DNA of 64,000 bases. Origin: Verrucomicrobiota bacterium (GTDB taxonomy: Bacteria > Verrucomicrobiota > Verrucomicrobiia > Limisphaerales > JADLHS01). Positions 2,052 through 19,542 of the stretch are shown here, one piece after another (within the stretch, counting starts at the first letter, position 1; each line of letters begins with the position of its first letter). A program made the translations under genes and the position numbers. The stretch spans positions 825 through 64,824 of the forward strand of contig JABFSR010000045.1 in NCBI GenBank assembly GCA_013140495.1, given 5' to 3'. Under the pieces are notes generated by a model. The model ran no database searches. It saw only the letters and a program-made list of their open reading frames with translations, and was not told where the DNA came from.

Positions 2052-2070
2052 CCATGGGGTGTAACCCTAC
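2052..2070 (-). promoter_or_regulatory. conserved upstream box (TAGGGTwACACCCCAT family), site 1
   Basis: The minus strand reads GTAGGGTTACACCCCATGG, about 65 nt upstream of the lipoprotein start at 1985. It is the perfect inverted partner of site 2. Confidence 0.5.
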
Positions 2071-2109
2071 CGTGGTCCGAACCTCTCCCCGTTCCGCCGA
2101 AGATAGGAA

Positions 2110-2128
2110 GTAGGGTTACACCCCATGG
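2110..2128 (+). promoter_or_regulatory. conserved upstream box, site 2
   Basis: GTAGGGTTACACCCCATGG, 53 nt upstream of ATG 2182. Confidence 0.5.
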
Positions 2129-2181
2129 AGAAGCCCCAAAAAAAACGGTTACCTTTACTCCAGAAAGCGATTCAAACTGAA

Positions 2182-2340
2182 ATGAAAAAAATCCTGTTTT
2201 TGACCGGCGTTATCTCCCTGCTCACTACCACCGGGTGTCTTGTTGCGGAAAGCGGAAGGCACGGACACAGGAGACATGGAAGGGAATCGACAGTCATAGT
2301 CCCCGTCCCCGTGGTCGTTGTACCGGTTCGCGTTCACTAA
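2182..2340 (+). CDS. small lipoprotein, hypothetical
   Basis: MKKILFLTGVISLLTTTGC lipobox, His/Arg-rich middle, Val/Pro tail. Internal start of ORF 2125..2340. The upstream box lies about 53 nt before it. Confidence 0.4.
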   Translation: MKKILFLTGVISLLTTTGCLVAESGRHGHRRHGRESTVIVPVPVVVVPVRVH

Positions 2341-2808
2341 TGATGGTCCCGTTGGAAAAATCGAGGTTGAAGGATACGTGTGTTATGCTTCAACTCGCGC
2401 GTGACTTGAACGGATGCAATACTCCGTCACCAGATTCATGGCGCCGGGATAATGCTTCCTCACGTCGGAGGGGCGATGCCGGGTTCGCTGCGTTTAATCT
2501 CGGTGGCGGCTTCTTTATTGGTGCAGAAAGCGAAAAATTGCTGCGAATTGTAGAAAAACCTTCCTCAAAAACGGCATTACCCGCACGGGACAATGGGCGA
2601 CCGGATTACACCGTTGTGGTTTGCTGCTCGGGCACGGGCTAATTGGGGTCACGTCTCTCGAGGTCTAGCTCCAACGGATTTTCCAACGCGACTTTCAGCA
2701 ACCTGTCCGGTCATTGAATGGTTCCTGAACGTCCACCCTTGGAAATCGCTTCTGCTGTAAACAAAATCTTCACAATGAGGCAACGCTACGCGGAGTGCCG
2801 CAGCTTTC

Positions 2809-4362
2809 CTATGGGGTGGAACCCTGCTGCGGCGCAGGAATCCGCTCCACCAATGCTTCCGCCGGGTAGGTCCAGATTTCCGCAAGCGTGGGATGGTAGT
2901 GCGGCAGGGCCGAGAGTTCGTGGACTGTCATGCGCTTTGCCATCGCCGCGACGATTTCGTGGATCAACTCGCCGCCAACCGGCCCGATGCACGCGCCGCC
3001 CAGGATTTCACCCGACTGCGGATCGGCCAGGAGTTTCACGAAGCCATCCTTCGCTTCCATGATAAGCGATTTGCCGTGTTCATTGAACGGGTAGCTTGCA
3101 ACCAGATACGGAATGTCGCTGGTCTTCGCTTCCTTTTCGGTCAGGCCGACAAGCGCCACTTGCGGCTCGGTAAAAATCACCGACAGTAACAGCCGGCAAT
3201 CCATCCGTCGCAGAGTCTTCGGGTGCGCGATGTTGTGCGCTGCAATCTCGCCCTGCTGCACGGCGAGATGCACGATGTCGTGCGGCCCGGTGCAATCGCC
3301 AGCGGTGTAAATGTGCGGCGCGCTGGTTTGCATGAATTCATTCGCCGCAATGCGCCCGCGTTCGGTCGCAACACCCGCCTTGTCGAGGTCCAGCGATGCG
3401 GTGTCCGGCACGCGACCGAGGGCGAACAGGATTTCTTCAGCCGAGACGGACACGAGCTGACCGTGGTGCTCGAACAAAATGGTTTTGCGCTGACCGTCGC
3501 GCCGCGCGTCGGTCAGTTTTGTGTTCGTGAAAACTTCGATGCCGTCGCGACGGAAGACCTTCTCAATTTCCAGCGCGGCATCTGTGTCGAACTCGTGCAG
3601 GATGTGCCCGCTGCGCTGGATGAGGGTCACCTTGACGCCGAACCGCGCGAAGAACTGCGCCAGTTCCACCGCCACCGCGCCGCCGCCAAGGACGATCAGA
3701 GACTTGGGAAGTTCTGTGAGATTCAGGGCATCGTCGCTGGTGAGATAGCCAACTTCGCGAAGTTGGGGCAGGGGAGGCGGCGCGACGGTGGAGCCGGTGG
3801 TAATCACGAAATGCGCGGCGGTGAGCGGCCCGGCATTGCTCACGGCGACCGTGTGCGGATCGAGAAAGTTCGCGCGGGTGCGGATGAACTTGAATTTGCC
3901 GCCGGCCAGTTGTTCGCGGCGATAGTCCGCAAATTCCTGGATGAGCGCGTTCTTGCGCGCCATGACTTTCGCGAAGTCAAAACCCACGTTTTCCGCACGG
4001 ATACCCCAAGGCGCGGCATGACTGGTGAGGTGCAGGACTTCGGCGGCGTAGAGCAGCGCCTTCGTTGGCATGCAGCCGCGCAGGATGCAGAGCCCGCCCA
4101 CTTCGTTGCCGCCTTCGATCACGACCGTCCGCAAACCAGCGGCGGTCGCCGTCCGCGCTGCCGCGTAACCGGCGCTGCCGCCGCCGAGGATGGCGACATC
4201 GTAGTCGAACCGGTTGCGCGTTTCGTTCACGGTGGCAGAATGAGCGACCACTGTCAGACTGACAAGGATGGGGTTGCCCAAGGTTCGGAGGACAGATTCG
4301 CTGTTCACGCCCGGCTGAATAATGGGCGTGCCCGTTTGTGCCAACTGCTCGCAAGCGCCCAA
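2809..4362 (-). CDS. FAD-dependent pyridine nucleotide-disulfide oxidoreductase (dihydrolipoyl dehydrogenase / mercuric reductase-like family)
   Basis: DVAILGGGSAGYAAA dinucleotide fold, redox CxxxxC in GGLCILRGCMPTK, second Rossmann motif LIVLGGGAVAVELA, C-terminal dimerisation region with HYHPTLAE. No MerA-type C-terminal Cys pair. An in-frame GTG at 4230 would give a more typical 474 aa. Confidence 0.85.
   Translation of the reverse strand: MGACEQLAQTGTPIIQPGVNSESVLRTLGNPILVSLTVVAHSATVNETRNRFDYDVAILGGGSAGYAAARTATAAGLRTVVIEGGNEVGGLCILRGCMPTKALLYAAEVLHLTSHAAPWGIRAENVGFDFAKVMARKNALIQEFADYRREQLAGGKFKFIRTRANFLDPHTVAVSNAGPLTAAHFVITTGSTVAPPPLPQLREVGYLTSDDALNLTELPKSLIVLGGGAVAVELAQFFARFGVKVTLIQRSGHILHEFDTDAALEIEKVFRRDGIEVFTNTKLTDARRDGQRKTILFEHHGQLVSVSAEEILFALGRVPDTASLDLDKAGVATERGRIAANEFMQTSAPHIYTAGDCTGPHDIVHLAVQQGEIAAHNIAHPKTLRRMDCRLLLSVIFTEPQVALVGLTEKEAKTSDIPYLVASYPFNEHGKSLIMEAKDGFVKLLADPQSGEILGGACIGPVGGELIHEIVAAMAKRMTVHELSALPHYHPTLAEIWTYPAEALVERIPAPQQGSTP
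2811..2825 (-). promoter_or_regulatory. conserved box, site 3 (overlaps the last codons of the oxidoreductase)
   Basis: The minus strand reads AGGGTTCCACCCCAT(AG). It faces a ~470 bp stretch (2341-2808) with no convincing ORF. Confidence 0.3.
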
Positions 4363-5697: not shown

Positions 5698-6092
5698 GGC
5701 TGGGGCGGGTGCGAATCATCTGGCAGGTAGCTGCAGTCAGGAATTATTCCGAATGCCGGTTTGGCGCGCCGATTTTTCAACCCGATCTTTTCCATGGATT
5801 CAAACGCCGATGTGCGCGGTGTTGGCATTATCTGGCACAGGTTCCGAATCAGACCCGCGAGGAAGAAGTGGACACTGGCTGGGCGTTGGCACAAACAGGC
5901 GACGTGCAGCAGGGCGCGGCCCAACGGGGTTTTGGAAAAGCTGACGGGCTTCCTTGGGCGACGAAAATTGCGCTGGCTACCCATTCGGAGCCCCAGGGGA
6001 TTTACGGTTCTTATCATATGCGATTCTTTCGGGCGTTGCGTTCTTGGTTGAACCAAAGCGGAATGGTAAGCGCCGGTCCGGCGGCCGGCTAT

Positions 6093-6110
6093 AAGGTGTT
6101 CACCCCATAT
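6093..6110 (+). promoter_or_regulatory. conserved box, site 4, upstream of the Kai operon
   Basis: AAGGTGTTCACCCCATAT, about 100 nt upstream of ATG 6213. Confidence 0.4.
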
Positions 6111-6212
6111 ACAAGGGGAAACGATTGTTCGATGTTTGGGTTGGATGGGTGGCTCCCCCCCCGTCGCGAGACCAAGCAGACCGGAGAGCCCCGCCAATGC
6201 TGGCAGGACAAC

Positions 6213-6911
6213 ATGAAACAAAAATTGATCGGGTTGTCACAACGATATGTGACGGCCCTACGAAAACACCTGAAACAGGGGCCCCGCGCGAGCTTGCAGC
6301 CAGCAGTGCGAGTGGGACGCCGGGCGGTTGCCTTGGGGATGGAGACATTGGAGCTAGCCCGCATTCATGAGCGAGCAATCACCGCTTTGGAAATATCCAA
6401 CAGCAAAAATGGATTTATCAAACGAGCGGAGATTTTTTTTACCGAAGCCCTCACTCCGATTGTGGAGACGCACCGTGCCGCGCGGCAGAGCAAGATTCAT
6501 CTGCTCCGGCTGAACGAGACGCTCAACCTCCGCTCGGTGGAACTTGCCGCCACCAACCGCCAGTTGAAGTGTGGCATTGTCCGGCGCAAAACCGTCGAAG
6601 CCGCGCTCAAGAAAAGCGGCGTGCATTACACCAGACTGTTGAAGGATTCCCTGCAACTCCAGGAAGGTTTGCGGCAACTGACGCACCAGGTGCTGGTGGC
6701 GCAGGAGGATGAACGCAAGAAGATCAGCCATGAACTTCAGGATGGGATCGCTCAGACTTTGCTGGGCATCAACGTCCGGCTGCTCGCCTTGAAAAAGGAG
6801 GCGTGGCTCAACACCAAGGGTCTCAAGAATGAAATCGCCACCACACAGCGGCTGGTGGTAAAATCGGCCAGGTCCGTCCGGCGGGTTGCCCGCGAATTCG
6901 GCCACTCATGA
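6213..6911 (+). CDS. HisKA_3 (DHp)-only histidine-kinase paralogue lacking the ATPase domain; phospho-His position is Gln
   Basis: Internal ATG of ORF 5709..6911. Collinear with the N-terminal 230 aa of the next gene (MKQKLIGLSQRYVTALRKHLKQGPRASLQPA vs MKARFSRRYQAALLTYLKQGSEASLQPA). H-box is ISHELQDGIAQ versus ISRELHDVIAQ. Ends at VAREFGHS*, where the paralogue continues FARELRPAVLDD. ATGA stop/start overlap with the next gene. Confidence 0.6.
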   Translation: MKQKLIGLSQRYVTALRKHLKQGPRASLQPAVRVGRRAVALGMETLELARIHERAITALEISNSKNGFIKRAEIFFTEALTPIVETHRAARQSKIHLLRLNETLNLRSVELAATNRQLKCGIVRRKTVEAALKKSGVHYTRLLKDSLQLQEGLRQLTHQVLVAQEDERKKISHELQDGIAQTLLGINVRLLALKKEAWLNTKGLKNEIATTQRLVVKSARSVRRVAREFGHS

Positions 6912-8038
6912 AAGCCAGATTTTCCAGACGCTATCAGGCGGCGTTGCTGACCTATCTCAAACAAGGCTCGGAGGCGAGCCTGCAACCGGCGCACGGCATG
7001 GGCCAGCACGCGCTGACTGCCGGCCTGCAGACGCTGGACATCGCCAAGCTCCATGAGCGCATTCTAATCACCCAGGTGTTGCCCGGCCAACCGCCCGGCA
7101 AACGCGCCAGGCTCATCAGACACGCGGGGACCTTCTTCACCGAGGCAATCACCCCGATCGCGAAAATTCATCCTGGCGCGCGGGATGCCGCTGTTCACCT
7201 GAATAGAATCGTCGAGATGTTGAGCCAGCGCACCGTGGAGCTGGCCGCTTCGAACCTGGATTTGGAACAGGAGATCACCCAGCGCAAGGCGGTGGAAGCG
7301 GCGCTCAAGAAAAGTGAACACCATTACAGCCAGTTGCTCGCCCAGTCGGATCGGCTGCAGCAACAATTGCGGCAATTGTCCCGCCAGATTCTCTCGGCCC
7401 AGGAGGAGGAACGCCGGGAGATCAGTCGCGAACTGCATGACGTCATCGCCCAGACCCTGACGGGCATCAACGTCCGGCTGGCCGCCCTGAAGAAAGAAGC
7501 GGCAATCAATACCAAAAGCCTCGACCGCAACATCGCACGCACGCAACGGCTGGTGGAAAAATCTGTGGACATCGTGCATCAATTCGCCCGCGAATTGCGC
7601 CCGGCGGTGCTGGATGATCTCGGCCTGATTCCCGCGCTCCATTCGTTTGCGAAAATCTTTTCCAAGCGGACGCACATCCGCGTTCACTTGAAGGCCTATG
7701 CGGGCGTTGAACAATTGGACGGCAACAAACGCACGATCCTCTATCGCGTGGCGCAGGAAGCACTCACCAATGTGGCCCGTCACGCGCAAGCCAGCCGCGT
7801 GGAAGTGAGCATCCAGAAATTGTCGGGCTGCATCTGCATGAAAATAACCGACGACGGCAAATCCTTCAGCGTGGAACGTGTCTTGCACGCCAATCGTGGC
7901 AAACGCCTCGGACTACTTGGCATGAGAGAACGCCTGGAGATGGTCGGCGGTAAATTTGCCGTCGAATCCGCGCCGGGCAAAGGCACCACCATTGAAGCAC
8001 AGCTTCCACTGGGTAAAGCCGCGCGGGGGGATCGTTGA
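6908..8038 (+). CDS. sensor histidine kinase, HisKA_3 + HATPase_c (NarX/DegS-type), cytoplasmic
   Basis: H-box SRELHDVIAQTL, N-box AQEALTNVARHA, G1 ITDDGKSF, G2 APGKGTT. No TM segments. Confidence 0.85.
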   Translation: MKARFSRRYQAALLTYLKQGSEASLQPAHGMGQHALTAGLQTLDIAKLHERILITQVLPGQPPGKRARLIRHAGTFFTEAITPIAKIHPGARDAAVHLNRIVEMLSQRTVELAASNLDLEQEITQRKAVEAALKKSEHHYSQLLAQSDRLQQQLRQLSRQILSAQEEERREISRELHDVIAQTLTGINVRLAALKKEAAINTKSLDRNIARTQRLVEKSVDIVHQFARELRPAVLDDLGLIPALHSFAKIFSKRTHIRVHLKAYAGVEQLDGNKRTILYRVAQEALTNVARHAQASRVEVSIQKLSGCICMKITDDGKSFSVERVLHANRGKRLGLLGMRERLEMVGGKFAVESAPGKGTTIEAQLPLGKAARGDR

Positions 8039-8067
8039 TGGCGTCCGTTAACCAAATCTTGAATTTT

Positions 8068-8112
8068 ATGAATCGAATCACTGTTCTGCTGACAGAAGAC
8101 TATGAAAACTAA
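8068..8112 (+). pseudogene. 14-codon stub resembling the N-terminus of a LuxR-type response regulator; overlaps the kaiC start
   Basis: ATGAATCGAATCACTGTTCTGCTGACAGAAGACTATGAAAACTAA = [14 protein letters not shown]. Compare RR at 11873 (GTGAAACGAATCACTGTTTTATTGGCGGACGACCAT = MKRITVLLADDH). It sits 29 nt after the kinase stop, the position the intact regulator occupies after the other kinase. Confidence 0.35.
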
Positions 8113-9862
8113 ACGTCCCAAGCCCACCACTCCGGCCACTCGTTTGCCCAAGTGTCCCACCGGCATCCAGGGACTTGATGAAATCACCGGCGGCGGATTG
8201 CCACGCGGACGGCCCACGCTGGTGTGCGGCGGCGCAGGTTGCGGCAAGACGTTGTTGGCTGCGGAATTTCTCGTGCGCGGCACGGTGCAGTTCGGCGAGC
8301 CGGGCGTGTTCATGGCTTTCGAGGAGACGGAGAAGGAGCTGACGGCCAACGTCGCGTCGCTCGGCTTTGATCTGACGGGCTTGATCCGGCGCAAAAAAAT
8401 TGTAGTGGACTACGTCCACATCGAACGCAGCGAATTCCACGAGAGCGGCGAGTATGACTTGGAAGGCTTGTTCGTCCGGCTCGGTCACGCGATTGATTCC
8501 ATCGGCGCCAAACGCGTGGTGCTGGACACGCTGGAGGTGCTGTTCGCCAGCCTGCCCAACGAGGCCATTCTGCGCAGCGAATTGCGCAGGCTCTTCCGCT
8601 GGCTCAAGGAGAAAGGTGTCACCGCCGTCATCACCGCCGAGCGCGGGCGTGAATCACTCACGCGCCACGGGCTGGAGGAATACGTGTCCGACTGCGTCAT
8701 CCTGCTCGATCACCGAGTCAATGACCAGATTGCCACGCGGCATCTGCGCGTGGTGAAATATCGCGGTGCGCTGCACGGCACCAACGAATTTCCGTTTCTC
8801 ATCGGCGACGAAGGCATCAGCGTCCTGCCGATTACGTCGCTGTCACTGAACCATAAAATCTCGGGTGAGCGGATTGCCACCGGCATCCCCCGGCTCGACG
8901 CGATGCTGGGCGGAAAAGGTTTCTTCCGTGGCAGCAGCATTCTGCTCACGGGCACGCCCGGCACCGGCAAGACCATTGTCGCCGCCAACTTTGCCCAAGC
9001 TGCCGCCCGGCGCGGGGAACGCGTGCTCTTTTTCTCGTTTGAGGAATCACCCGACCAGATCATCCGCAACATGCACTCCATCGGGTTGCGGCTGGATCCT
9101 CTGGTCAAGCGCGATCTGCTGCGGTTTCATTCGGCGCGGCCCTCGCTTTACGGTCTGGAAATGCATCTGGCCACGATGTTCAAGGAGATCGCCACGTTTC
9201 AACCTCAAGTTGTCATCATCGACCCCATCACCAGCCTGATGGACTCCGGCACCGATTCCGAAAGCAAGGGGATGGTGACGCGGCTGATTGATTATCTGAA
9301 GGGCGGACAAGTCACTTCGCTCTTCACCAGTCTGACGCAAGGCGGCCACTCACTGCAACAAAGTGAAATGGCCATGTCCTCGCTCATGGACTCCTGGCTG
9401 TTGTTGCAAGACTTCGAAGGCAACGGCGAACGCAATCGCGTGTTCTACGTGCTCAAGGCGCGCGGCATGGCGCACTCGAACCAGATTCGCGAGTTCCTGA
9501 TTTCGGACCGGGGCATTGACATCGTGGATGCTTACATCGGGGCCAGCGGCGTATTGACCGGCTCCGCGCGGGCAGCGCAGGGTGCCCTCGAAAAAGCCGC
9601 CGTGCTGGCCAGCCAGCAGGAAGCCGCCCGACTCAAGCGCGAAGTGGAGCGCAAACGCGCGGCGATCGAACGGCAAATCAGCGGGCTGCGCTCCGACTAC
9701 GAAAGCGAATCCGCGGAACTGCGGCGCATTGCCGATCAGGTCGGCACCAGTACGCTCATGCTGACCACCGAACAGGCGGCCTCCGGCATCTTGCGCCAGG
9801 CGGATACGAAGGTGGCGGCCAACAGGCGGGTCAACCACAGAAATGGGAAGGCGAGCGTATGA
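8102..9862 (+). CDS. kaiC: circadian-clock-type ATPase KaiC with C-terminal coiled-coil-like extension
   Basis: Two RecA-like halves. Walker A GGAGCGKT (CI) and GTPGTGKT (CII); catalytic EE pairs in MAFEETEKE and FSFEESPDQ. KaiC-type block [40 protein letters not shown]. About 65 aa longer than the canonical ~519 aa; the tail is heptad-like ([38 protein letters not shown]). Confidence 0.9.
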
Positions 9863-10185
9863 AAACAAAAACGGTGAAACGCCGGGCCGCCGCCCCGCGC
9901 CAGCCCGCCAAGCGCTGGCAACTGCGCCTTTACGTGATGGATACGACGCCCAAATCGCAGACGGCGTTCGCGAACTTGAAAAAGTTTTGCGAAACCCACC
10001 TCAAAGGCCGCTATCGCATCACGGTGATTGATTTGATGAAGCAGCCCCACCTTGCCAAAGGCGATCAAATCCTGGCCATCCCCACGGTGGTGCGCAAACT
10101 GCCGAAGCCCGTGCGCAACATCATTGGCACCCTTTCCGATACCGAACATCTGCTTGTGGGCCTGGATCTGCGCGCGGCGGGTTAA
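9859..10185 (+). CDS. kaiB: KaiB (thioredoxin-like fold), copy 1
   Basis: Core [77 protein letters not shown] overlap with the kaiC stop. Basic ~20 aa N-terminal tail [19 protein letters not shown]. Confidence 0.9.
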
Positions 10186-10200
10186 CAGAGACGTACGCCC

Positions 10201-11864: not shown

Positions 11865-11872
11865 ACTGACTT

Positions 11873-12550
11873 GTGAAACGAATCACTGTTTTATTGGCGG
11901 ACGACCATGTGATGGTGCGCGAGGGAATCCGCAACCGGCTCGAACTCGAAGACGACCTCGAAGTGGTCGGCGAAGCCGGAGACGGTCGCAAGGCGGTCGC
12001 CCTGGTCAAAAAACTCCGGCCCGCCGTGGTGTTGATGGACATCGCGATGCCGCTGCTTAATGGTTTGGAGGCCACCCGGCAGATTCGCAAAGACTTTCCC
12101 GACACCAAGGTGCTCATTCTCTCCGCGCACAGTCATGCCGCTTTCGTCAAGCAAGTGACCGGGTTGGGAGCCGCGGGATTTTTGCTCAAGCAAACCTCCT
12201 CCGACGTTCTGGTCACGGCGATTCGCGAAGTCCAAAAAGGAAACACATTTTTCAGCCCGGCCATTGCCAGTCACCTCCACGGTCGCGATCCGAAGTCGCT
12301 GGATCGAGGGGCGCAGTTCAAGAAGAAAAGCAACCACCTGAGTTCGCGCGAGGTGGAGGTGCTCCAATTGATTGCCGAAGGCCAGCCCAACAAACAAGTC
12401 GCCGCCGAACTGGGCGTGAGCTTCAAAACCGTGGACAAACATCGGCAGCATCTCATGGGCAAGCTCAACATCCATGACATCGCCGGTCTCACCCGCTACG
12501 CCATCGCCGAGGGAATCATCAAGAGCAATGTCCTGGTGACCATCAGCTAG
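11873..12550 (+). CDS. NarL/LuxR-family response regulator (REC + GerE HTH)
   Basis: REC: ITVLLADDHVMVREG..VVLMDIAMPLLNG..LILSAH. HTH: LSSREVEVLQLIAEGQPNKQVAAELGVSFKTVDKHRQHLMGKLNIHD. Starts 8 nt after the kinase stop. Confidence 0.9.
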   Translation: MKRITVLLADDHVMVREGIRNRLELEDDLEVVGEAGDGRKAVALVKKLRPAVVLMDIAMPLLNGLEATRQIRKDFPDTKVLILSAHSHAAFVKQVTGLGAAGFLLKQTSSDVLVTAIREVQKGNTFFSPAIASHLHGRDPKSLDRGAQFKKKSNHLSSREVEVLQLIAEGQPNKQVAAELGVSFKTVDKHRQHLMGKLNIHDIAGLTRYAIAEGIIKSNVLVTIS

Positions 12551-12656
12551 CCCAACACCCGGTTTCGCGGTTTTCTCTCACGCCCGGCCTGGTCACGGCC
12601 AACCCATGCTTCACGGGCTTCGGGGGAAAACCTCCGCTCAGGGGGATATCCCCCAC

Positions 12657-12674
12657 GGTGAACCCCCAAATAGC
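12657..12674 (+). promoter_or_regulatory. degenerate copy of the conserved box, upstream of DUF3494 gene 1
   Basis: GGTGAACCCCCAAATAGC (compare GGTGAACACCCCATGGC at 17338). It starts two bases after the 14-bp palindrome GGGGGATATCCCCC (12641-12654). Confidence 0.3.
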
Positions 12675-12754: not shown

Positions 12755-13573
12755 ATGAACATCACTCAAGAACCAAAACATACCGTCAGCAAACTCACGA
12801 GACTGAACCGCGCAGCGTCAAAAAAATTAGTTCCTATAGGTGCAGTTCTGATGGCCGCGCTGCTTTACAGCGTTTCCCCGGCAGCAGCCGAAGGCAGTCA
12901 TCGAAGCAGTCAAGGAAAGGGACCGACGCCAGTCAATCTTCGATCGGCCGGCAGTTTCGTGATTCTATCAAAATCAGGAATCACCGACGTCTATGCATCA
13001 GCTATTGTTGGAAATGTTGGAACGAGTCCAATCACCGGTGCAGCTCTTCTCCTGGCGTGCGATGAAGTGGTTGGGACAATCTACGCAGTTGATGCTGCCG
13101 GTCCGGCCTGTAGCGTGGCAGCCGCCAGCTTGTTGACCACGGCAGTCGGCGACATGCAAACCGCATACGACGACGCTGCTGGACGAAAATTCCCCACTGC
13201 TACTGAACTGGGGGCCGGAAATATTGGCGGGAAGACCATCACTCCCGGCCTCTACAAATGGAGCAGTTCGGTTCTAATACCCAATCGGGTCACGCTCAAG
13301 GGCGGCCCAAATGATGTCTGGATCTTCCAGATCGCGGGGAATCTCACCGTGGGCAACGGTATCGCAGTGACGTTGAGCGGCGGCGCCCAGGCCAAGAACA
13401 TCTTCTGGCAGGTCGCCGGCCAAACGACCCTTGGAACGACGGCTAACTTCAAGGGAATTGTATTGTGTAAAACATTGATTGCGATGAACACCGGCGCAGT
13501 GATGAACGGCAGAGCGCTGGCACAGACCGCAGTTACGTTACAGAAGAATGCCGTAATACAGCCAGCTAACTAA
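12755..13573 (+). CDS. secreted DUF3494 / ice-binding-like family protein, copy 1
   Basis: Signal-like LVPIGAVLMAALLYSVSPAAA, then the family signature LRSAGSFVILSKSGITDV..IVGNVGTSPITGAAL, PGLYKWSSSV, VWIFQIAGNLTVG, GGAQAKNIFWQVAG, NGRALAQTAVTL. Confidence 0.75.
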   Translation: MNITQEPKHTVSKLTRLNRAASKKLVPIGAVLMAALLYSVSPAAAEGSHRSSQGKGPTPVNLRSAGSFVILSKSGITDVYASAIVGNVGTSPITGAALLLACDEVVGTIYAVDAAGPACSVAAASLLTTAVGDMQTAYDDAAGRKFPTATELGAGNIGGKTITPGLYKWSSSVLIPNRVTLKGGPNDVWIFQIAGNLTVGNGIAVTLSGGAQAKNIFWQVAGQTTLGTTANFKGIVLCKTLIAMNTGAVMNGRALAQTAVTLQKNAVIQPAN

Positions 13574-13621: not shown

Positions 13622-14608
13622 ATGAAACACACACCTTTAACCGGGAACAAAACCTTAAACGTCCGGGGATTGATCCTTGGCCTTGCGGTCGCCGTGATCT
13701 TCCTGCGCCATGACGCGACGGCAGCGCAAGCCCCAGTAGCTCTTGGATCGGCCGATAGTTTCGTGATTCTCGCAAAATCCGGAATCTCAACTACTGGGAC
13801 CACCTCAATTGGTGGCGATATTGGAGTGAGTCCAATCGGCAGCACTGCCATCACTGGATTCGGGTTGATCATGGATCCATCGGGGCAATTTTCCTCATCA
13901 TCTCTGGTCATCGGAAAAATATATGCCGCCGACTATGCGGTTACCACGCCAGCGAAAATGACTGCGGCGGTAAGCGACATGGAAACCGCGTACACCGACG
14001 CTGCGGCGCGGACATTACCTGACGCCACCGAGCTTTACGCCGGAGATATTAGCGGTCAAACCTTTGGTCCGGGACTCTACAAGTGGAGTACTGGTCTTTT
14101 GATCAATGCCGATGTAACGCTCGCAGGCCCCGCAGATGCTGTCTGGATATTCCAGGTGGCCGGTAATCTTACGATGGGATCAGGGACGAAGGTTTTGCTA
14201 AGCGGTGGCGCGCAAGCCAAGAATATCTTCTGGCAAATTGCTGGTGGCGTTGGCGTCGAGATTGGAACCACGGCACACGTTGAGGGCGACATATTGGCCG
14301 CCAAAGCAATCCACCTGCGAACGGGCGCGTCACTGAACGGTAGAGCATTAGCACAGACTGCGGTTACATTGGACGCCAATACCATTACCATTCCCAACAC
14401 CGTAACTGGCTCCGTCATCCTGGAGTCAGCGGCAAAAGTCACCGGACAGTACACGGTAGCTGCGGGGCAGTCGGTTAATCTTGAGACCAGGACCATAACC
14501 GTTCCCACATCAGGGGACATGCAGTTCTATCGTCTCCGATCAGACACCGCACTCACCATCACGGGCATCAGCCTCTCCGGTGGCAACGTGGAAATAACCT
14601 ACAATTAG
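13622..14608 (+). CDS. secreted DUF3494 / ice-binding-like family protein, copy 2, with ~70 aa C-terminal module
   Basis: LGSADSFVILAKSGISTTGTTSIGGDIGVSPIGSTAITGF, PGLYKWSTGL, VWIFQVAGNLTMG, GGAQAKNIFWQIAG, NGRALAQTAVTL. Extra tail ..TITVPTSGDMQFYRLRSDTALTITGISLSGGNVEITYN. Confidence 0.75.
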   Translation: MKHTPLTGNKTLNVRGLILGLAVAVIFLRHDATAAQAPVALGSADSFVILAKSGISTTGTTSIGGDIGVSPIGSTAITGFGLIMDPSGQFSSSSLVIGKIYAADYAVTTPAKMTAAVSDMETAYTDAAARTLPDATELYAGDISGQTFGPGLYKWSTGLLINADVTLAGPADAVWIFQVAGNLTMGSGTKVLLSGGAQAKNIFWQIAGGVGVEIGTTAHVEGDILAAKAIHLRTGASLNGRALAQTAVTLDANTITIPNTVTGSVILESAAKVTGQYTVAAGQSVNLETRTITVPTSGDMQFYRLRSDTALTITGISLSGGNVEITYN

Positions 14609-14743: not shown

Positions 14744-14890
14744 ATGAATAGAACAAAGCTCTTGGGCGGCATAACGGTTCCGGTGTCAGGCAGCGTGCGG
14801 TTCTATCGTATTATCGTGGGCACAGCCTTCACCATTACGAGCATCACCATTTCCGGTGGCAACGTGGTAATCACCTGCTTTTATGATAAC
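14744..14890 (+). CDS. 48-aa ORF that is a free-standing copy of the C-terminal module of the preceding DUF3494 protein (possibly a gene remnant)
   Basis: Below the track cutoff. AAGGAGA sits 5 nt before the ATG. MNRTKLLGGITVPVSGSVRFYRIIVGTAFTITSITISGGNVVITCFYDNK aligns with RTITVPTSGDMQFYRLRSDTALTITGISLSGGNVEITYN. Confidence 0.3.
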
Positions 14891-15386
14891 AAATAAAATC
14901 TCGCAAGCGGGAGCGCCGGCCAGCACAGTCCGGCGATCCCAACCGAATCCACCCAAGCGGATTCTCGTGGTGGATGACGATCCGTCGCTCCGCCAGATTT
15001 ATACCGAAGTGTTGACTCATGCCGACTACGAGGTGGACACCGCCGAAGATGGAGCGGTCGCCTGGGACGCACTGCAGGTCAACGGCTATGATCTGCTGAT
15101 CACCGACAATAATATGCCGAAGGTGACCGGCGTTGATCTGCTCAAAAAGGTCCATGCCGCCCACATGACGCTGCCGGTCATCATGGCCACTGGCACCTAT
15201 CCCGCCGAGGAATTCAGCCGTTATTCATGGATCCAACCTGACGCCACGCTGCTCAAGCCCTATTCCATGGCGGAGTTTTTGGGAGCAGTGAAAGAAGTGT
15301 TGTGTGTGAACGACGATGTCAGCGCGGAGCTGACCCCGCCGCCAGTCTGGCAAATCCGACCGTCAGCAGCGTGCTTGCGGCTTTGA
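14883..15386 (+). CDS. single-domain (CheY-like) response regulator receiver
   Basis: RILVVDDDPSLRQIYTEVL..YDLLITDNNMPKVTGVDLLKKV..LPVIMATG..LLKPY. No output domain. Confidence 0.8.
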   Translation: MITNKISQAGAPASTVRRSQPNPPKRILVVDDDPSLRQIYTEVLTHADYEVDTAEDGAVAWDALQVNGYDLLITDNNMPKVTGVDLLKKVHAAHMTLPVIMATGTYPAEEFSRYSWIQPDATLLKPYSMAEFLGAVKEVLCVNDDVSAELTPPPVWQIRPSAACLRL

Positions 15387-15423: not shown

Positions 15424-15444
15424 TTAGGGTTATACCCCATAGCG
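15424..15444 (+). promoter_or_regulatory. conserved box, site 6, upstream of the decayed kinase / second LuxR regulator
   Basis: TTAGGGTTATACCCCATAGCG. Confidence 0.45.
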
Positions 15445-15469
15445 CTCGCAAAATGGTCAGGGTAAGCTC

Positions 15470-15850
15470 GGGCGATAAAAAGTAATACATTGCTCATCAC
15501 GTTTCATTCCGCCGCCACTTTCGCTGCCGGCGGACAAGAAAATTCGTTACGCCAACCGGTGTTCCGCCCGCCAGGTCAAAGGCACGCTACCACCGGTGAA
15601 GGCAGTTCCTTTCGCCGCTTATGAAACGGGCCGACCCATCCGGCTTGGAAATCCAGGTGCAGTCCAATTCCGGCGGCGGTTCGCAAATGCCGGCGCAAAT
15701 CTCCCTTCGTTCACTGGCAAAGGATGATTGCCAACCATGTGGTTATCGGTACGGTGGTGACGGAGCTTACGGAGGCCCGGGCAACAAGGAACTGGCTGCG
15801 GGCCTTGAAGCACCGTGTGTGCTGGATGCCAAGCGAGAGTTATTGGCCTG
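15470..15850 (+). pseudogene. decayed PAS-histidine-kinase fragment (paralogue of 10551..11864) lacking the DHp and ATPase domains
   Basis: Nucleotide-level collinearity with 10770-11165, e.g. aaatccaggtgc..ggttcgcaaatgccgg.gcaaatctcccttcg..ggtggtgacgga.ct.acggaggcccgg..gaactg.tgcgggccttga.gcaccg.gtg. There is at least one frameshift (..IQVQSNSGGGSQMPAQISLRS.. then GTVVTELTEARATRNWLRALKHRV in another frame) and an internal ~35 nt deletion. It ends just before where the H-box should start. Confidence 0.6.
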
Positions 15851-15854
15851 ATTT

Positions 15855-16538
15855 ATGAAACCGAAACAAATTACGGTCCTGCTCGCGGAAGACCATACCA
15901 TCGTGCGCGAGGGGTTTCGCAAGATGCTCGAACTCGAAGACGACATTACAATCGTCGGCGAAGCGCAAGACGGCCGTCAGGCGGTTGCCCTGGTCAAAAA
16001 ACTTTGCCCCGCCGTGGTCTTGATGGACATCGCCATGCCCCTGCTCAACGGTTTGGAAGCCACGCGCCAGGTGCTCAAAGCCGTCCCCACCACCAAAATA
16101 ATCATCCTCTCGGCGCACAGCGATGACGCGTATGTCTCCAACGCGACCGAGTCCGGCGCGGTGGGCTTTCTGCTCAAACAAACCTCGGCCCACGACGTGT
16201 GCCGGGCCATCCGGGAAGTCCACCAGGGGAAAACTTTTTTTAGTCCTTCGATTTCCAAGCGTCAAGATCGGCTCCATCCGCAAGCGCCTGACCGCGTTGG
16301 AGCGCTCAAGAAGAAAGCCGCGCAATTGACTTCGCGCGAGATGGAAGTGCTCCAGCTCATCGCCGAAGGCAAGGCCAACAAGGAAACCGCGGTGGAACTC
16401 GGCATCGGCATGAAGACGGTCGAGAAGCATCGCGAGCATCTCATGGAGAAACTCGACATCCACGACACGGCCGGACTCACCCGTTACGCCATCAGTGCGG
16501 GCATCATCGAGAGCAGCGTGCAGTTGACGATTATCTAG
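15855..16538 (+). CDS. NarL/LuxR-family response regulator (REC + GerE HTH), paralogue of 11873..12550
   Basis: ITVLLAEDHTIVREG..VVLMDIAMPLLNG..IILSAH. HTH: LTSREMEVLQLIAEGKANKETAVELGIGMKTVEKHREHLMEKLDIHD. Confidence 0.9.
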   Translation: MKPKQITVLLAEDHTIVREGFRKMLELEDDITIVGEAQDGRQAVALVKKLCPAVVLMDIAMPLLNGLEATRQVLKAVPTTKIIILSAHSDDAYVSNATESGAVGFLLKQTSAHDVCRAIREVHQGKTFFSPSISKRQDRLHPQAPDRVGALKKKAAQLTSREMEVLQLIAEGKANKETAVELGIGMKTVEKHREHLMEKLDIHDTAGLTRYAISAGIIESSVQLTII

Positions 16539-16665: not shown

Positions 16666-16685
16666 GGTAGGGTAACACCCCATAT
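16666..16685 (+). promoter_or_regulatory. conserved box, site 7
   Basis: GGTAGGGTAACACCCCATAT, ending 32 nt before ATG 16718. An extra inverted half-site ATGGGGT lies at 16618. Confidence 0.45.
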
Positions 16686-16717
16686 CGCTTGCAGGTTGCC
16701 TCTCCTAATATGAGTTC

Positions 16718-16906
16718 ATGAAAGCCAATCAAGCGAAGAAGGCATTGATGTTTCGTGTGTTCATCATGGCTTTGTTCGATGACCGGGGTAAACGATCCGC
16801 CGGAGGGCTTGTAATGCCCGCCGTCAACGCAACTCGCGTTAAGTTTCAAGGCACAACACTTCATTTTTCCTGGGCGGAGTCTCGATTGGAATCGCGCTTC
16901 CTATGA
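16718..16906 (+). CDS. hypothetical small protein (62 aa)
   Basis: ORF 35 nt downstream of the conserved box. ATGA overlap with the next ORF. No recognisable domain. Locally AT-richer DNA. Confidence 0.25.
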   Translation: MKANQAKKALMFRVFIMALFDDRGKRSAGGLVMPAVNATRVKFQGTTLHFSWAESRLESRFL

Positions 16907-17191: not shown

Positions 17192-17302
17192 ATGATTCTC
17201 ACAAGCATGGTTTTCATCTGGCTCGGTTTGACACTGCTGTTTACGATCGCTCTGTGCTGGGCTGCTGGCGGCACGACGCCCAAGCCCGGGATCCCCGATT
17301 GA
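17192..17302 (+). CDS. possible 36-aa single-TM peptide
   Basis: Hand-translated: MILTSMVFIWLGLTLLFTIALCWAAGGTTPKPGIPD*. Below the track cutoff. No obvious SD. Confidence 0.15.
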   Translation: MILTSMVFIWLGLTLLFTIALCWAAGGTTPKPGIPD

Positions 17303-17333
17303 AACACCTGCTGGCCGCTTTGTTTCAACGCGT

Positions 17334-17351
17334 ATGGGGTGAACACCCCAT
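17334..17351 (+). promoter_or_regulatory. conserved box, site 8: perfect 8-2-8 palindrome upstream of the heptad-repeat LuxR gene
   Basis: ATGGGGTGaaCACCCCAT, 39 nt upstream of ATG 17390. Confidence 0.5.
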
Positions 17352-17389
17352 GGCGACCGCAGAGTAGTAGTGCCTATCTTTAGGCAGTT

Positions 17390-18019
17390 ATGCCTTCAAA
17401 GGACTCTTTCAAAACAGAACGCCAACCGTCACCAGTCGAAGATTCCAACCCAACGGTGACGGGTGATGGAGGTGAAAAGAGGAAGAATCAAGACCCGGTT
17501 GTGGTCGCCGCCAAGACGCGGGTGGAGCAGGCCGAAGCCCGAACCGAGCAGGCCGAGGCGCGCACCGAGCAAGCCAAGACGCGGGCCGAATCTGCCGAGA
17601 CGCGCACTGAGCAAGCCGAAGCCCGGACAGAACAGGCAAAGACCCGGACGGAACAGGCGGAAGTCAGAACGGAGCAAGCCGAAACCCGGACAGAACAGGC
17701 GGAGACGGCGTTGGAAAATGCGGTTCATCCGGAAGGCAACTTGCGGCGGGATGTTTCCGCGCGGCTCCACAAAGAGTTTCCCGTCGCGGGAATTGACGAC
17801 CATGCCTATCCGCTCGAACAGTTGACGAGCCGCCAGCGCGAAATTCTCCAACTCATCGCCGAAGGTCAGAACACCAAACAGATCGCGGACATCCTCAAAG
17901 TCAGTCCCAAGACCGTCGAGTATCATCGCATGAAGTTGATGGCCGGCCTGAACCTTCATGATATTCCCGGCTTGGTGCGCTATGCCATGCGTGTGGGTTT
18001 GATAGCGCCTGAATGCTGA
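17390..18019 (+). CDS. LuxR/GerE-HTH transcription regulator with N-terminal heptad-repeat (coiled-coil) region and no receiver domain
   Basis: C-terminal LTSRQREILQLIAEGQNTKQIADILKVSPKTVEYHRMKLMAGLNLHDIPGLVRYAMRVGLI. The N-terminal half has ten 7-aa units of type (E/K)(A/T)RTEQA. A perfect 8-2-8 palindrome lies 39 nt upstream. Confidence 0.75.
   Translation: MPSKDSFKTERQPSPVEDSNPTVTGDGGEKRKNQDPVVVAAKTRVEQAEARTEQAEARTEQAKTRAESAETRTEQAEARTEQAKTRTEQAEVRTEQAETRTEQAETALENAVHPEGNLRRDVSARLHKEFPVAGIDDHAYPLEQLTSRQREILQLIAEGQNTKQIADILKVSPKTVEYHRMKLMAGLNLHDIPGLVRYAMRVGLIAPEC
17513..17722 (+). repeat. 10 x 21-nt in-frame tandem repeat encoding KTRVEQA EARTEQA EARTEQA KTRAESA ETRTEQA EARTEQA KTRTEQA EVRTEQA ETRTEQA ETALENA
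   Basis: Read directly. Units differ mainly at synonymous or conservative positions (gcccgaacc / gcgcgcacc / acgcgcact / gcccggaca / acccggacg ...). Confidence 0.9.
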
Positions 18020-18055
18020 GGCGCGTTCTCACGCCGGAAAGTTTGGCTCCATCCA

Positions 18056-18379
18056 CTACCACAATTCATGGCCATGTTCTTTGAAGCGTCGTTGAATCCT
18101 GCTCCAGTCGCCGTTGAGCTGGATCGTTTGCTCAAGACTGCCACCCGTCTTGTCAGGATGCACGCAAACAATCTGCCTCCGGTAAAGCTGGCGTGCCTCT
18201 TCCAAAACCTGCAAATGATTGATTCGTCGCTCCCAAAACGATCCACACTGACGCTGTCCCCGGACGTAGAGCAACCGGTTTGGCACCCCCACCGTTTTCA
18301 AGAGCCCGACTATTTGCCTGGTATTCCCGGAACTCTTTGAGTTTCGGCATCTGCTGCGAACAAGAGGTGTTGAGTTCAT
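18056..18379 (-). CDS. possible small J-domain-like protein
   Basis: EEARQLYRRQIVCVHPDKTGGSLEQTIQLNGDWSRIQ resembles J-domain helix II, HPD loop and helix III (AYRKLA..HPDK.GGS.E.F..IN.AY..L). The N-terminal part is unconvincing and may be frameshifted relative to an upstream ORF beginning MEKYELNTSC. Confidence 0.3.
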   Translation of the reverse strand: MNSTPLVRSRCRNSKSSGNTRQIVGLLKTVGVPNRLLYVRGQRQCGSFWERRINHLQVLEEARQLYRRQIVCVHPDKTGGSLEQTIQLNGDWSRIQRRFKEHGHELW

Positions 18380-18671
18380 ATTTTTCCATGGTTGGGAAAT
18401 TCGATCCCGCTACACCAAGCCGCCCGCCGTAGCCGAAGCCCTGCGGTTCTGCGCCCCAGCTGATTGAGTCTCGCGTACGATACCGGAGAGATGCCATCTC
18501 CAATGGCCGGCCCGCATGGCCGCCACAAGGTGCAGACATGACCGTCCCCAACATCTTTGGCTGAGATAGCGCGTCATAGTTTTTCCTTTCGTTGCTTCCA
18601 GACCGGTGACTGAAGGAGCGATTTCGCCCCGGTTGCGGGCGACAAAAAGCTCCCTGCATCGAGTGACCCGT

Positions 18672-19277
18672 TCAGGGCATTTGTTGTGTGCGATAATACC
18701 GTTTCGCGAAACTCGGCGCGTTCGTATCAGTGAAGTCCGCTGAAGCACTCGCGCCCAGCGTAACAGTGCCAATGACAGTCCAACCGGTAAAAGTCTGTGT
18801 TGCCAGAATATCGTACGATTTACCGATCAACCCTTTTACAGTCAGAACGGCCTGCCTGTTGGCCATGACGCGAATCTGGAGCATGGGAAGCCCTGGCATA
18901 TAACTGATCTCATTCGATGGGGCACTCTCCAGTCCGCTCGCGGTATAACCAGTGATGGCAAAGAAATAAGTCACGCCGCTCTCCAGACCTGGAACAGTAT
19001 TGGTCGTTACGTTTCCCACTGTAACGCTGTTCGTATAGTTCCCGCTCGCAGCGCCATAATAGACGCGATAGCCGGTCACGCTGCTGTCGGAACTGCGATC
19101 CCAAGCCAGGGCCACGCTGTACGGACCGGGGAGTGTTACGCTGAGAGCCGGAACCGGGTTGTGGAGCAAGGCGAGTAACAGGATCCCTCCCAGAACTCTT
19201 GTGAGTCCCATGAATCCTGAAAACCATGTCAAAGCTCCGTTGGTACGAGCAACCGTTTGTTCAGAGATTTTTTGCAT
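18672..19277 (-). CDS. secreted fibronectin type III domain protein
   Basis: Signal anchor LTRVLGGILLLALLHNPVPALS. FN3: YSVALAWDRSSDSSVTGYRVYYGAASGNYTNSVTVGNVTTNTVPGLESGVTYFFAITGYTASGLESAPSNEISY. C-terminal beta-rich module ending ..RYYRTQQMP. Confidence 0.7.
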   Translation of the reverse strand: MQKISEQTVARTNGALTWFSGFMGLTRVLGGILLLALLHNPVPALSVTLPGPYSVALAWDRSSDSSVTGYRVYYGAASGNYTNSVTVGNVTTNTVPGLESGVTYFFAITGYTASGLESAPSNEISYMPGLPMLQIRVMANRQAVLTVKGLIGKSYDILATQTFTGWTVIGTVTLGASASADFTDTNAPSFAKRYYRTQQMP

Positions 19278-19521
19278 GAGTACCGTTACGTCTCACCGGG
19301 GATGAACGCGACTAGGCCGTTCCTTGCCACCGTTGGGAAATTCCTTGGTCTCAGTTCTGGGAAGCACGGCGGGCAACCTTCAGTCCCAACTCTTGATTTT
19401 CATCGCAAGCTCAATCACCCCATCCGGATCAAACCGTCGAGATTTACAAAGCAGATCACGAGTGAGACGAAGATTTTGATCAAGACCGAAACAAACCTGT
19501 CCGCGACTTCCAATCCCGCCT

Positions 19522-19542
19522 GGTAGGGTAACACCCCATAGC
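19522..19542 (+). promoter_or_regulatory. conserved box, site 9, upstream of the CBM48-elaB-yqjE-yqjK operon
   Basis: GGTAGGGTAACACCCCATAGC, about 90 nt upstream of ATG 19632. Confidence 0.45.

Follow-up and report, generated by a model that had tools for sequence, protein, structure and literature searches.

In this work, we describe a conserved box of 18-21 bp found in a 64,000-nucleotide stretch of a Limisphaerales genome (Verrucomicrobiota bacterium, assembly GCA_013140495.1, contig JABFSR010000045.1, positions 825 to 64,824), hereafter referred to as the window. Our results indicate that this box is probably the activator-binding element of sigma-70-type promoters heading a general-stress regulon, which would be common to the Verrucomicrobiota, to other phyla of the Planctomycetota-Verrucomicrobiota-Chlamydiota (PVC) superphylum and to some Acidobacteriota. 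The best candidate for the binder is RR2, a response regulator encoded in the window among genes for RsbU_N-type kinases and for the proteins KaiC and KaiB. The evidence comes from the geometry of the box-containing promoters, from the genes found under them in other genomes and from the company that RR2 keeps across phyla.

Box sites in the window

The whole 64 kb was scanned on both strands with a weight matrix composed of 145 independent sites, which had been collected in other genomes around genes related to RR2 (see below). At a threshold of 8 bits, exactly eight sites were returned, namely 2052-2069 (-), 2111-2128 (+), 2809-2826 (-), 6093-6110 (+), 15425-15442 (+), 16668-16685 (+), 17336-17353 (+) and 19524-19541 (+). 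All of them lie below 20 kb and none between 20 and 64 kb, which agrees with the initial annotation, where the box had been reported from the first 20 kb only. Shuffled sequences gave about 0.6 sites per window at the same threshold, and six of the eight real sites score 23-35 bits. Likewise, the 19-mer consensus TAGGGTWACACCCCATRGC, with up to three mismatches allowed, matched six times in the 64-kb window against 0.01 matches expected (2051-2069 (-), 2111-2129 (+), 2808-2826 (-), 15425-15443, 16668-16686 and 19524-19542), while CACCCCAT occurs there in 10 copies against 1.5 expected.

Two forms of the box can be told apart. Class A reads TAGGGT-WAC-ACCCCAT and is the core of a conserved 21-bp element, GG-TAGGGTWACACCCCATRG-C; its dyad is imperfect (6-3-6, five of the six pairs matching). 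Class B is a palindrome, ATGGGGTG-WW-CACCCCAT-RGC, with a perfect 8-2-8 dyad. The sites at 17334-17351 and 6091-6108 are class B palindromes with 0 and 2 mismatches, respectively, so that the earlier assignment of both copies to a single consensus has to be corrected. The halves of the box had also been described as inverted; this is true of the palindromic class B, whereas class A is not truly inverted. The eight sites, with their -10 hexamers and the genes that they are predicted to drive, are as follows.

2052-2069, minus strand: class A box TAGGGTTACACCCCATGG, 34.1 bits; -10 TAGTGT at 2031-2026; lipoprotein operon 1985-1539 (-) and 1520-1062 (-)
2111-2128, plus strand: class A box, 33.2 bits; -10 TACCTT at 2150-2155; gene for a lipoprotein of 52 amino acids (aa), 2182-2340
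2809-2826, minus strand: class A box with three mismatches, 23.6 bits; -10 TAGCGT at 2788-2783; ohr/osmC-like gene from the GTG at 2773
6091-6108, plus strand: class B box ATAAGGTGTTCACCCCAT with two substitutions in the distal half, 12.8 bits; -10 GATGTT at 6131-6136; promoter of the regulatory operon 6213-12550
15425-15442, plus strand: class A box TAGGGTTATACCCCATAG, 32.7 bits; -10 TAAGCT at 15463-15468; remnant of a PAS-kinase gene, 15542-15819, and the RR2 gene
16668-16685, plus strand: class A box, 31.5 bits; -10 TAATAT at 16706-16711; small open reading frame (ORF) 16718-16906
17334-17351, plus strand: class B box, the perfect palindrome ATGGGGTGAACACCCCAT; -10 TATCTT at 17375-17380; gene 17390-18019 for a protein with heptad repeats and a GerE helix-turn-helix (HTH) domain
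19524-19541, plus strand: class A box without mismatches, 34.6 bits; weak -10 CATTGT at 19563-19568; CBM48-ElaB-YqjE-like operon

Each box is oriented towards its downstream gene and has its CACCCCAT half on the gene side, just as had been claimed. The distance of 35-105 nt to the gene start, proposed together with this orientation, is nearly that of seven sites (34-104 nt from box to start codon); the box at 15425, however, stands 414 nt from the RR2 gene at 15855, with the kinase-gene remnant in between. The remainder of the window holds genes for housekeeping and for flagella, and therefore the clustering of the boxes follows gene function. Among these genes are those for FliF, FliG, FliI, a rod or hook protein and FliM, which form a flagellar cluster at 38036-48810 within the box-free 44 kb, as well as those for an amidase, a class I tRNA synthetase and a peptidase. 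Extra weak boxes were sought upstream of 5697 (-), 14883, 13622, 19277 (-) and 21045, and none was found at these places.

Promoter architecture and the two forms of the box

The flanks of exact TAGGGTWACACCCCATRG sites were not used in the selection of those sites and are thus informative. Across 140 distinct flanks, the only further conservation consisted of GG immediately before the box, C immediately after it and a TAnnnT hexamer at box positions 39-44 (T39 in 64%, A40 in 76%, T44 in 80%), the 20-nt spacer being little conserved. The same pattern reappeared in the 145 sites gathered independently around regulator genes. A full TAnnnT at the right distance follows 60% of class A and 48% of class B sites, compared with a background of 1.2%. 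In addition, 39 of 139 flanks (~28%) show an ATG peak at box positions 50-52, 6-8 nt past the hexamer, which is a signature of leaderless mRNAs. Box promoters without a leaderless ATG are followed by A-rich leaders. A scan for sigma-70 promoters with two hexamers detected none at any of the eight window boxes, i.e., no recognisable -35 hexamer is present there. Finally, boxes avoid coding sequence: the longest ORF that runs across a box has a median length of 124 aa, as opposed to 387 aa for positions taken at random.

From the -10 hexamer and the leaderless ATGs we infer the start point of transcription. The ATG peak would place it near box position 51, about 7 nt past the hexamer and often at the A of a leaderless ATG, in which case the box spans approximately -50 to -33 and its dyad is centred near -43. 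Relative to this putative start, the layout is that of class II promoters, with a centre near -41.5 to -43.5, a good -10 and a poor -35, and the dyad (perfect in class B, imperfect in class A) is of the kind expected for a NarL/FixJ operator. Overall, the box is a predicted element of sigma-70-type promoters, standing in the place of a recognisable -35 hexamer. Two further claims of the initial annotation gain support here: that the box is cis-regulatory and not a dispersed repeat, given its orientation towards genes, the fixed distance to the -10 and its depletion from coding sequence; and that its geometry suits a dimeric HTH protein of the LuxR/GerE type, given the dyad and the class II-like placement.

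The two classes share the promoter-proximal half and the distance to the -10, the distal half-site of class B being 1 bp further off. In the 1.1 Mb around regulator genes, there are 95 class A and 80 class B sites. Moreover, the promoters of orthologous kinase operons carry a class B box in some genomes and a class A box in others; since the upstream regions of distant kinase operons, taken from tblastn coordinates, were often misplaced, positive cases alone were used in this comparison. Because both classes head the same kinds of genes and replace each other at orthologous promoters, they are treated as one system.

Two other mappings of the box were tried and rejected. When the half-sites are laid over the 7-2-7 heptamers of NarL, they have a TACCC-like core in common, but neither their orientation nor their spacing agrees with that scheme, and no claim is made. 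A sigma-B-type reading, with GGGTWA as the -10, finds nothing conserved upstream at the -35 distance and leaves the strongly conserved downstream half and TAnnnT unexplained.

Taxonomic range and the genes under the box

Other genomes were read as stretches of 8-20 kb, with one genome per species in the exact-motif searches. The exact 18-mer TAGGGTWACACCCCATRG occurred in at least 120 stretches, compared with ~70 expected by chance over the whole collection, and almost all of the matches listed belong to the Verrucomicrobiota, Lentisphaerae, Kiritimatiellae, Planctomycetota or Acidobacteriota. For the exact class B 21-mer, at least 120 stretches were found against ~2 expected, mostly from Verrucomicrobiota, with some from Acidobacteriota. 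Contrary to what had been supposed at first, the regulon is not local: a letter-perfect box heads stress genes in at least 120 stretches of the PVC phyla and Acidobacteriota. Several metagenome-assembled genomes (MAGs) labelled Bifidobacteriaceae, Solirubrobacteraceae or Klebsiella (L011, L053, L072, L080, L091, L098, L109, L037, L056 and L233) also carry boxes together with stress genes of the verrucomicrobial type; probably, these labels are taxonomic mislabels or binning errors.

A Pfam scan of the first gene downstream of 132 boxes gave the following families.

BON, 13
PRC barrel, 4
DUF5670, 4
CsbD, 3
YflT, 3
DUF3309, 3
Entericidin, 3
Ice-binding-like, 3
REC, 3
DUF892, 2
Ferritin/Dps, 2
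CBM48, 2
PAS/HisKA_3, 2

The BON targets are of the OsmY type, and the DUF3309 and DUF5670 targets are membrane peptides. Reading of the sequences added Ohr/OsmC, Fe/Mn superoxide dismutase, phosphoketolase, a DJ-1-type protein and a protein resembling general stress protein 26. Small lipoproteins and ElaB-YqjE also belong to the output, ElaB/DUF883 having been assigned by Pfam for the window gene. Class B targets further include RRM RNA-binding proteins and heptad-repeat regulators, the latter forming the largest class B target group (16 of 137). Hallmark general-stress proteins are thus among the targets, and comparable gene content is known from the sigma B, sigma S and EcfG regulons. Judged by gene content, the box-headed genes appear to make up a general stress regulon, presumably induced by stress.

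RR2 as the candidate binder

The window encodes two response regulators with REC and GerE domains, whose orthologues adjoin boxes in other genomes.

11873-12550, plus strand: RR1, NarL-type response regulator, a diverged paralogue with the recognition helix KTVDKHR
15855-16538, plus strand: RR2, NarL/FixJ-type response regulator, conserved, with the recognition helix KTVEKHR

Relatives of RR2 were confirmed in at least 576 stretches. The best 80 of these, 67-88% identical and 1.1 Mb in total, are hereafter called regulator loci; they come from Verrucomicrobiota, Kiritimatiellae, Lentisphaerales, Sedimentisphaerales, Kuenenia and Acidoferrum, which is the same range as that of the box. Around these 80 regulator genes there are 112 class A boxes with at most two mismatches, against ~0.1 expected in 1.1 Mb. 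In the opposite direction, 12 of 120 box-selected 8-kb stretches hold an RR2 orthologue (60-87% identical), and the commonest family in these 120 stretches is the RsbU_N/HisKA_3 kinase (16 by strict match to 6908-8038, 39 as a cluster). A recurrent layout in the regulator loci is a box followed by an RsbU_N pseudo-kinase, an RsbU_N kinase and RR2, often with another box after them, and a box precedes the kinase-regulator operon in many lineages. No further family of DNA-binding proteins was recurrent next to boxes, either in the 120 box-selected stretches or in the 80 regulator loci.

The conservation of RR2 itself points in the same direction. Among 79 orthologues, columns with at least 90% identity make up 67% of the HTH domain, 49% of the receiver and 3% of the linker, and the recognition helix KTVEKHR is nearly invariant, which matches the near-invariant DNA motif. 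In other respects, RR2 is an ordinary member of the NarL/FixJ family, its nearest solved structures being VraR, NarL, DesR and DevR. RR1 is 65-68% identical to the conserved orthologues. The two genes are parts of a segmental duplication of a PAS-kinase/regulator pair (15542-16538 versus 10836-12550, 73-80% nucleotide identity), in one copy of which the kinase core has been deleted internally; the copy without most of its kinase (RR2) is closest to the orthologues, and the Kai-linked copy (RR1) has diverged.

Taking synteny, taxonomic range and helix conservation together, RR2 is most likely the binder of the box, acting as a dimer, and RR1 probably binds it too. The initial annotation, which had looked for the regulator among the GerE-HTH proteins encoded by the targets, appears to have been right on this point.

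RsbU_N kinases and the Kai insertion

RR1 closes an operon in which kinase and Kai genes are combined.

6213-6911, plus strand: protein with RsbU_N and HisKA_3 (Pfam), without an ATPase domain; H-box ELQD
6908-8038, plus strand: complete RsbU_N-HisKA_3-HATPase_c kinase (Pfam); H-box ELHD
8102-9862, plus strand: KaiC
9859-10185 and 10201-10554, plus strand: KaiB, two tandem genes
10551-11864, plus strand: PAS-HisKA_3 kinase

In the Bacillus general stress response, RsbT activates RsbU by way of the RsbU_N domain. The first two proteins are paralogous, and both reach the cut-off of this domain (PF08673; 26.3 and 31.7 bits, respectively, the cut-off being 25.5 bits); thus, as in stressosome systems, RsbU_N sits on the output enzyme. 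The RsbU_N family adjoins the regulator in most of the 80 regulator loci. A gene of the pseudo-kinase type precedes the full kinase in most of these loci across phyla, and the change from H to Q is also seen in L089. Genes for rsbR, rsbS or rsbT were absent from the recurrent neighbour families within 10 kb of the 80 regulator loci, and none was found among the window genes scanned. RsbU_N-histidine kinases next to rsbT/stressosome genes have been described in some Proteobacteria (PMC9237108).

In ~12 of the 80 regulator loci, all of them with verrucomicrobial gene content, a KaiC-KaiB-KaiB-PAS kinase block separates the RsbU_N kinase from RR2. The insertion is at the same spot in L123, L135, L140, L141 and L145, and it is partial or similar in L126, L127, L137, L170 and L179. 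In relatives, the regulator right after the Kai-linked kinase is of the conserved RR2 type (81-88% identical). The second kaiB of relatives is only ~36-43% identical to the first KaiB of the window, and the tandem pair is kept wherever the Kai insertion is present. No kaiA is found in the operon. About 68 of the 80 regulator loci are without Kai genes, though some of their contigs are short, and box and regulator occur without Kai in loci from Kiritimatiellae, Lentisphaerae and Planctomycetota.

The Kai genes are a lineage-specific secondary insertion into the operon. As the insertion is confined to few loci and the regulon exists without Kai in many, Kai is best seen as an added input; more likely, it feeds into a pre-existing stress switch rather than defining the regulon. 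The Kai operon had been listed among the targets, and the 6093 box does precede it; however, the genes heading this operon are the two histidine-kinase genes and not kaiC.

Individual promoters and neighbouring genes

The boxes at 2111 and 2052 stand back to back. The lipoprotein encoded at 1985-1539 (-) is helical and apolipoprotein-like, and orthologues of the genes in the operon behind the 2052 box also follow boxes in other genomes, as do orthologues of the 52-aa lipoprotein (2182-2340), which are box-driven in loci L049, L080, L085 and L125. The box at 2809 overlaps the stop codon of a pyridine-nucleotide-disulfide oxidoreductase gene (2809-4362 (-)). Its own target, the ohr/osmC-like gene at 2400-2773 (-), is a pseudogene that reads VKILFTAEAISKGGRSGTIQ* and has more in-frame stops beyond. 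The syntenic locus L004 possesses a perfect box and an intact ohr/osmC-like gene of 138 aa; therefore, the promoter in the window has outlived its gene.

At the place of the 6091 box, orthologous operons have CTATGGGGTGTTCACCCCATATACA...GATAGT or a class A box. Downstream of the regulatory operon and of RR2, the following further genes are found.

12755-13573 and 13622-14608: two ice-binding-like (DUF3494) genes
14883-15386: REC-only protein
19632-20018, plus strand: CBM48
20015-20320, plus strand: ElaB/DUF883
20328-20717, plus strand: YqjE-like Phage_holin_3_6

The two DUF3494 genes, once named as targets, are without a scoring box in this window. A ninth, degenerate copy of the box had been placed before them at 12657-12674; its matrix score is below 0, and it is not counted as a site, being at best a relic that has kept only ATAGC and TATTTT at the right distance. 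A perfect 14-bp palindrome, GGGGGATATCCCCC, lies at 12641-12654, upstream of the two genes; it is a single copy in the window and adjoins the relic-like ATAGC...TATTTT at box spacing. Ice-binding-like genes elsewhere carry a normal box (L176, L192, L193).

The ATG at 16718 is 7 nt past the -10 hexamer of the 16668 box, as in a leaderless mRNA. A box directly downstream of the regulator gene is also seen in L123, L128, L131, L134, L158, L176, L177 and L192. The leaderless ORF 16718-16906, of 62 aa, is similar to an extension (MKxNxKKKALTFGxFI...) that box-driven REC-only proteins elsewhere have at their N-terminus (e.g., L082 3188-3884), and the REC-only gene of the window, 14883-15386, has neither this extension nor a box. 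Such a picture suggests that a rearrangement split the REC-only gene, leaving its extension in ORF 16718-16906.

The arrangement of a class B box before a heptad-repeat GerE gene is repeated in L125 and L161. The heptad repeat (A/K)xTRTEQAE, N-terminal in the protein 17390-18019, is shared by PAS histidine kinases of other genomes (L287, L295 and others), again at the N-terminus. Finally, the layout of a box followed by a CBM48/ElaB operon recurs in L080, L085, L125, L126, L133, L134 and L144.

Weighing of alternative explanations

Several observations do not sit easily with a dimer of RR2 as activator. The spacing of the half-sites differs by 1 bp between the two classes, and equal tolerance of both by one rigid dimer would be unexpected. 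Box positions T16 and G18 could act as a partial -35, which is compatible with a repressor covering this region. An RsbU_N domain implies an RsbT-like partner, yet no rsbR, rsbS or rsbT lies within 10 kb of the 80 regulator loci. Finally, the synteny that resembles autoregulation would also be expected of a kinase-regulator operon that is itself no more than a target of some other factor.

The last point leads to what we regard as an unlikely explanation, although no other alternative fares better, i.e., that the binder of the box is the heptad-repeat GerE protein 17390-18019 or some other transcription factor, the kinase-RR2 operon being one target among many. The heptad-repeat protein has a similar recognition helix, KTVEYHR, its own gene is preceded by a perfect palindrome, and two classes of sites could correspond to two binders. 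However, its orthologues were found in only four of the 120 box-selected stretches and in ~5 of the 80 regulator loci, all of them MAGs of the Verrucomicrobiae/Pedosphaera type or with such gene content, whereas the box reaches the Lentisphaerae, Kiritimatiellae and Planctomycetota. The absence of any other recurrent DNA-binding family near the boxes also speaks against this explanation, and the exchange of class A and class B at orthologous kinase-operon promoters argues for one binder.

Rather improbable, too, is the supposition that the box is an operator over the -35 region from which a repressor, be it RR2 or another protein, is released by stress. Highly conserved palindromic operators of stress regulons, such as CIRCE (bound by HrcA) and LexA boxes, are typically repressor sites; the box does overlap the -35 position, and the possible partial -35 formed by T16 and G18 has been mentioned above. 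On the other hand, with no recognisable -35 at any of the eight window sites, these promoters would be weak even when free. The spacing to the -10 is strict within 1 bp, as for class II activators, while repressor operators usually tolerate variable placement, and a box before a two-component operon fits positive feedback.

The initial annotation had speculated that the boxes mark the transcriptional output of the KaiBC system. It is true that KaiC, two KaiB proteins, a PAS kinase and a NarL-type regulator are encoded in one box-preceded operon, and that in relatives it is the RR2 type that follows the Kai-linked kinase. Nevertheless, the kinase and the regulator are of the PAS-HisKA_3 and REC-GerE types and not those of SasA-RpaA, the regulon does not co-occur with kai genes in many loci and phyla, and phyla that have only the kinase-kinase-regulator operon still possess the box and the regulon, whose targets are general-stress genes in hundreds of genomes. 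As an exclusive reading, a local Kai output regulon is thus already contradicted by box and RR2 without Kai, and we consider it very unlikely; what survives of it is Kai as an added input in this lineage.

It is even harder to believe that the box is the -35 element of an alternative sigma factor, either of the extracytoplasmic function (ECF) type or a stress sigma. The motif GTWAC within the box recalls ECF -35 motifs, and in other bacteria it is sigma factors (sigma B, sigma S, EcfG) that control the general stress regulon. However, ACCCCAT ends 22 nt and GTWAC 29 nt before the -10, too far for regions 4 and 2 of one sigma, so that the geometry is incompatible with a single factor; a symmetric motif with 16-18 conserved bp is larger than a -35 element, the -10 is of the housekeeping type TAnnnT, and no sigma gene recurs near boxes. 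The chance that the box is a dispersed repeat, the end of a mobile element or a transcribed RNA motif without a promoter role is negligible: its many copies are partly palindromic, but this idea is already contradicted by their orientation towards genes, the fixed -10 distance, the leaderless ATG peak, depletion from coding sequence, conservation upstream of unrelated stress genes across phyla, a location upstream of the putative start point and the lack of any Rfam match in window positions 1-22000 at E<=1. The absent -35, the avoidance of coding sequence, the negative Rfam scan and the geometry therefore make a repeat, an RNA motif and a sigma -35 element poor fits.

Proposed mechanism and its significance

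We propose the following scenario for activation through RR2. The cytoplasmic RsbU_N-HisKA_3 kinase (6908-8038) would phosphorylate RR2, a dimer of phosphorylated RR2 would bind the box, as its paralogue RR1 probably would, and the bound dimer would recruit RNA polymerase as a class II activator. The activity of the kinase might be modulated by its pseudo-kinase paralogue (6213-6911) and by a presumed protein partner docking on the RsbU_N domains. Boxes upstream of the kinase operon and of RR2 would provide positive autoregulation. Through the inserted KaiC, two KaiB and the PAS-HisKA_3 kinase, the same regulator probably receives a further input in this lineage, of a metabolic or time-keeping kind.

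On a broader scale, it is tempting to suppose that in the PVC phyla and some Acidobacteriota the general stress response is governed not by an alternative sigma factor but by a two-component system of RsbU_N kinase, pseudo-kinase and NarL-type regulator, with the near-invariant box as its class II activator site, and that a KaiBC timer was spliced into the operon in one verrucomicrobial lineage (Limisphaerales in several records), where clock or hourglass gating is possible. Resting as it does on genome comparison, this wider picture is tentative, and we give it a fair hearing rather than our full assent.

General stress responses are understood in few groups, namely through sigma B in Firmicutes, sigma S in Gammaproteobacteria and PhyR-EcfG in Alphaproteobacteria. 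Members of the PVC superphylum, most of them uncultured, abound in soil, freshwater, peat and gut; to our knowledge, neither a stress master regulator nor a promoter motif is known for this superphylum, and none is given in the literature that we searched. Searches for the box with 12-mers returned nothing, and a 9-mer returned unrelated papers only, in a literature whose coverage is incomplete; with the same incomplete coverage, searches for a general stress regulator of PVC bacteria or Verrucomicrobia, for links between Kai and LuxR-type proteins and for studies of transcription start sites gave nothing relevant beyond mentions of RsbU_N kinases.

If our scenario is true, it would be the first defined general-stress switch for the PVC superphylum, with a concrete pair of regulator and kinase offered as candidates. 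A near-invariant box of 18-21 bp with fixed geometry would make the stress regulon readable from any PVC genome or MAG, and genetic tools for these phyla would have in the box a ready-made promoter part that is inducible by stress. Moreover, the KaiBC system of a non-photosynthetic bacterium wired to a defined transcriptional output would make the role of Kai outside cyanobacteria, a question of long standing, testable.

Comparison with known systems

The DosR/DevR dormancy regulon of Mycobacterium tuberculosis offers many parallels, and DevR is among the nearest solved structures to RR2. A NarL-family regulator, cytoplasmic kinases, a long dyad box near or over the -35, positive autoregulation and small stress or dormancy proteins are found in both cases. 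The Dev box, a palindrome of ~20 bp, is nevertheless different, GGGACT-N-AGTCCC as opposed to TAGGGT-N3-ACCCCA; the DosR/DevR kinases have GAF-haem domains in place of RsbU_N, the taxa are other ones, and only our system has the conserved pseudo-kinase and, in some lineages, KaiBC in the operon.

Class II activation by LuxR/TraR is alike in its GerE/LuxR-type HTH, in an inverted repeat near -43 that replaces the -35 (the lux box is a 20-bp inverted repeat centred at -42.5) and in a -10 at a fixed distance. It differs in being controlled by acyl-homoserine-lactone rather than by phosphorylation of a REC domain; the sequences are unrelated, and two spacing variants exist in our case. The PhyR-NepR-EcfG system of Alphaproteobacteria shares a master switch controlled by phosphorylation, a clade-wide stress regulon and a promoter motif conserved throughout the clade. 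However, EcfG acts as a sigma factor and PhyR as an anti-anti-sigma factor; in our proposal, DNA is bound by the response regulator itself.

In the cyanobacterial KaiABC/SasA-RpaA system, as here, the genes for KaiC and KaiB accompany those for a histidine kinase and for the response regulator of a large regulon. Unlike there, our operon has no kaiA, the kinase is of the PAS-HisKA_3 type rather than one with a KaiB-like domain, the regulator is NarL-type rather than OmpR-type, and the regulon exists without Kai in most lineages. The general stress response of Bacillus under sigma B works via stressosome, RsbT and RsbU (PMC12143880). With the sigma B/stressosome pathway (PMC12143880, PMC9237108) our system has in common CsbD, YflT, general stress protein 26, Dps and OsmC/Ohr among the targets, as well as an RsbU_N domain on the signalling enzyme that switches the response on; in contrast, the output here would be a DNA-binding response regulator at a sigma-70-type promoter, no rsbRST genes are nearby, and the RsbU_N protein is duplicated, with one copy catalytically dead. 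Overall, the system differs from all of these cases in its motif, in the combination of an RsbU_N kinase with a conserved pseudo-kinase, in its taxonomic range and in the Kai insertion.

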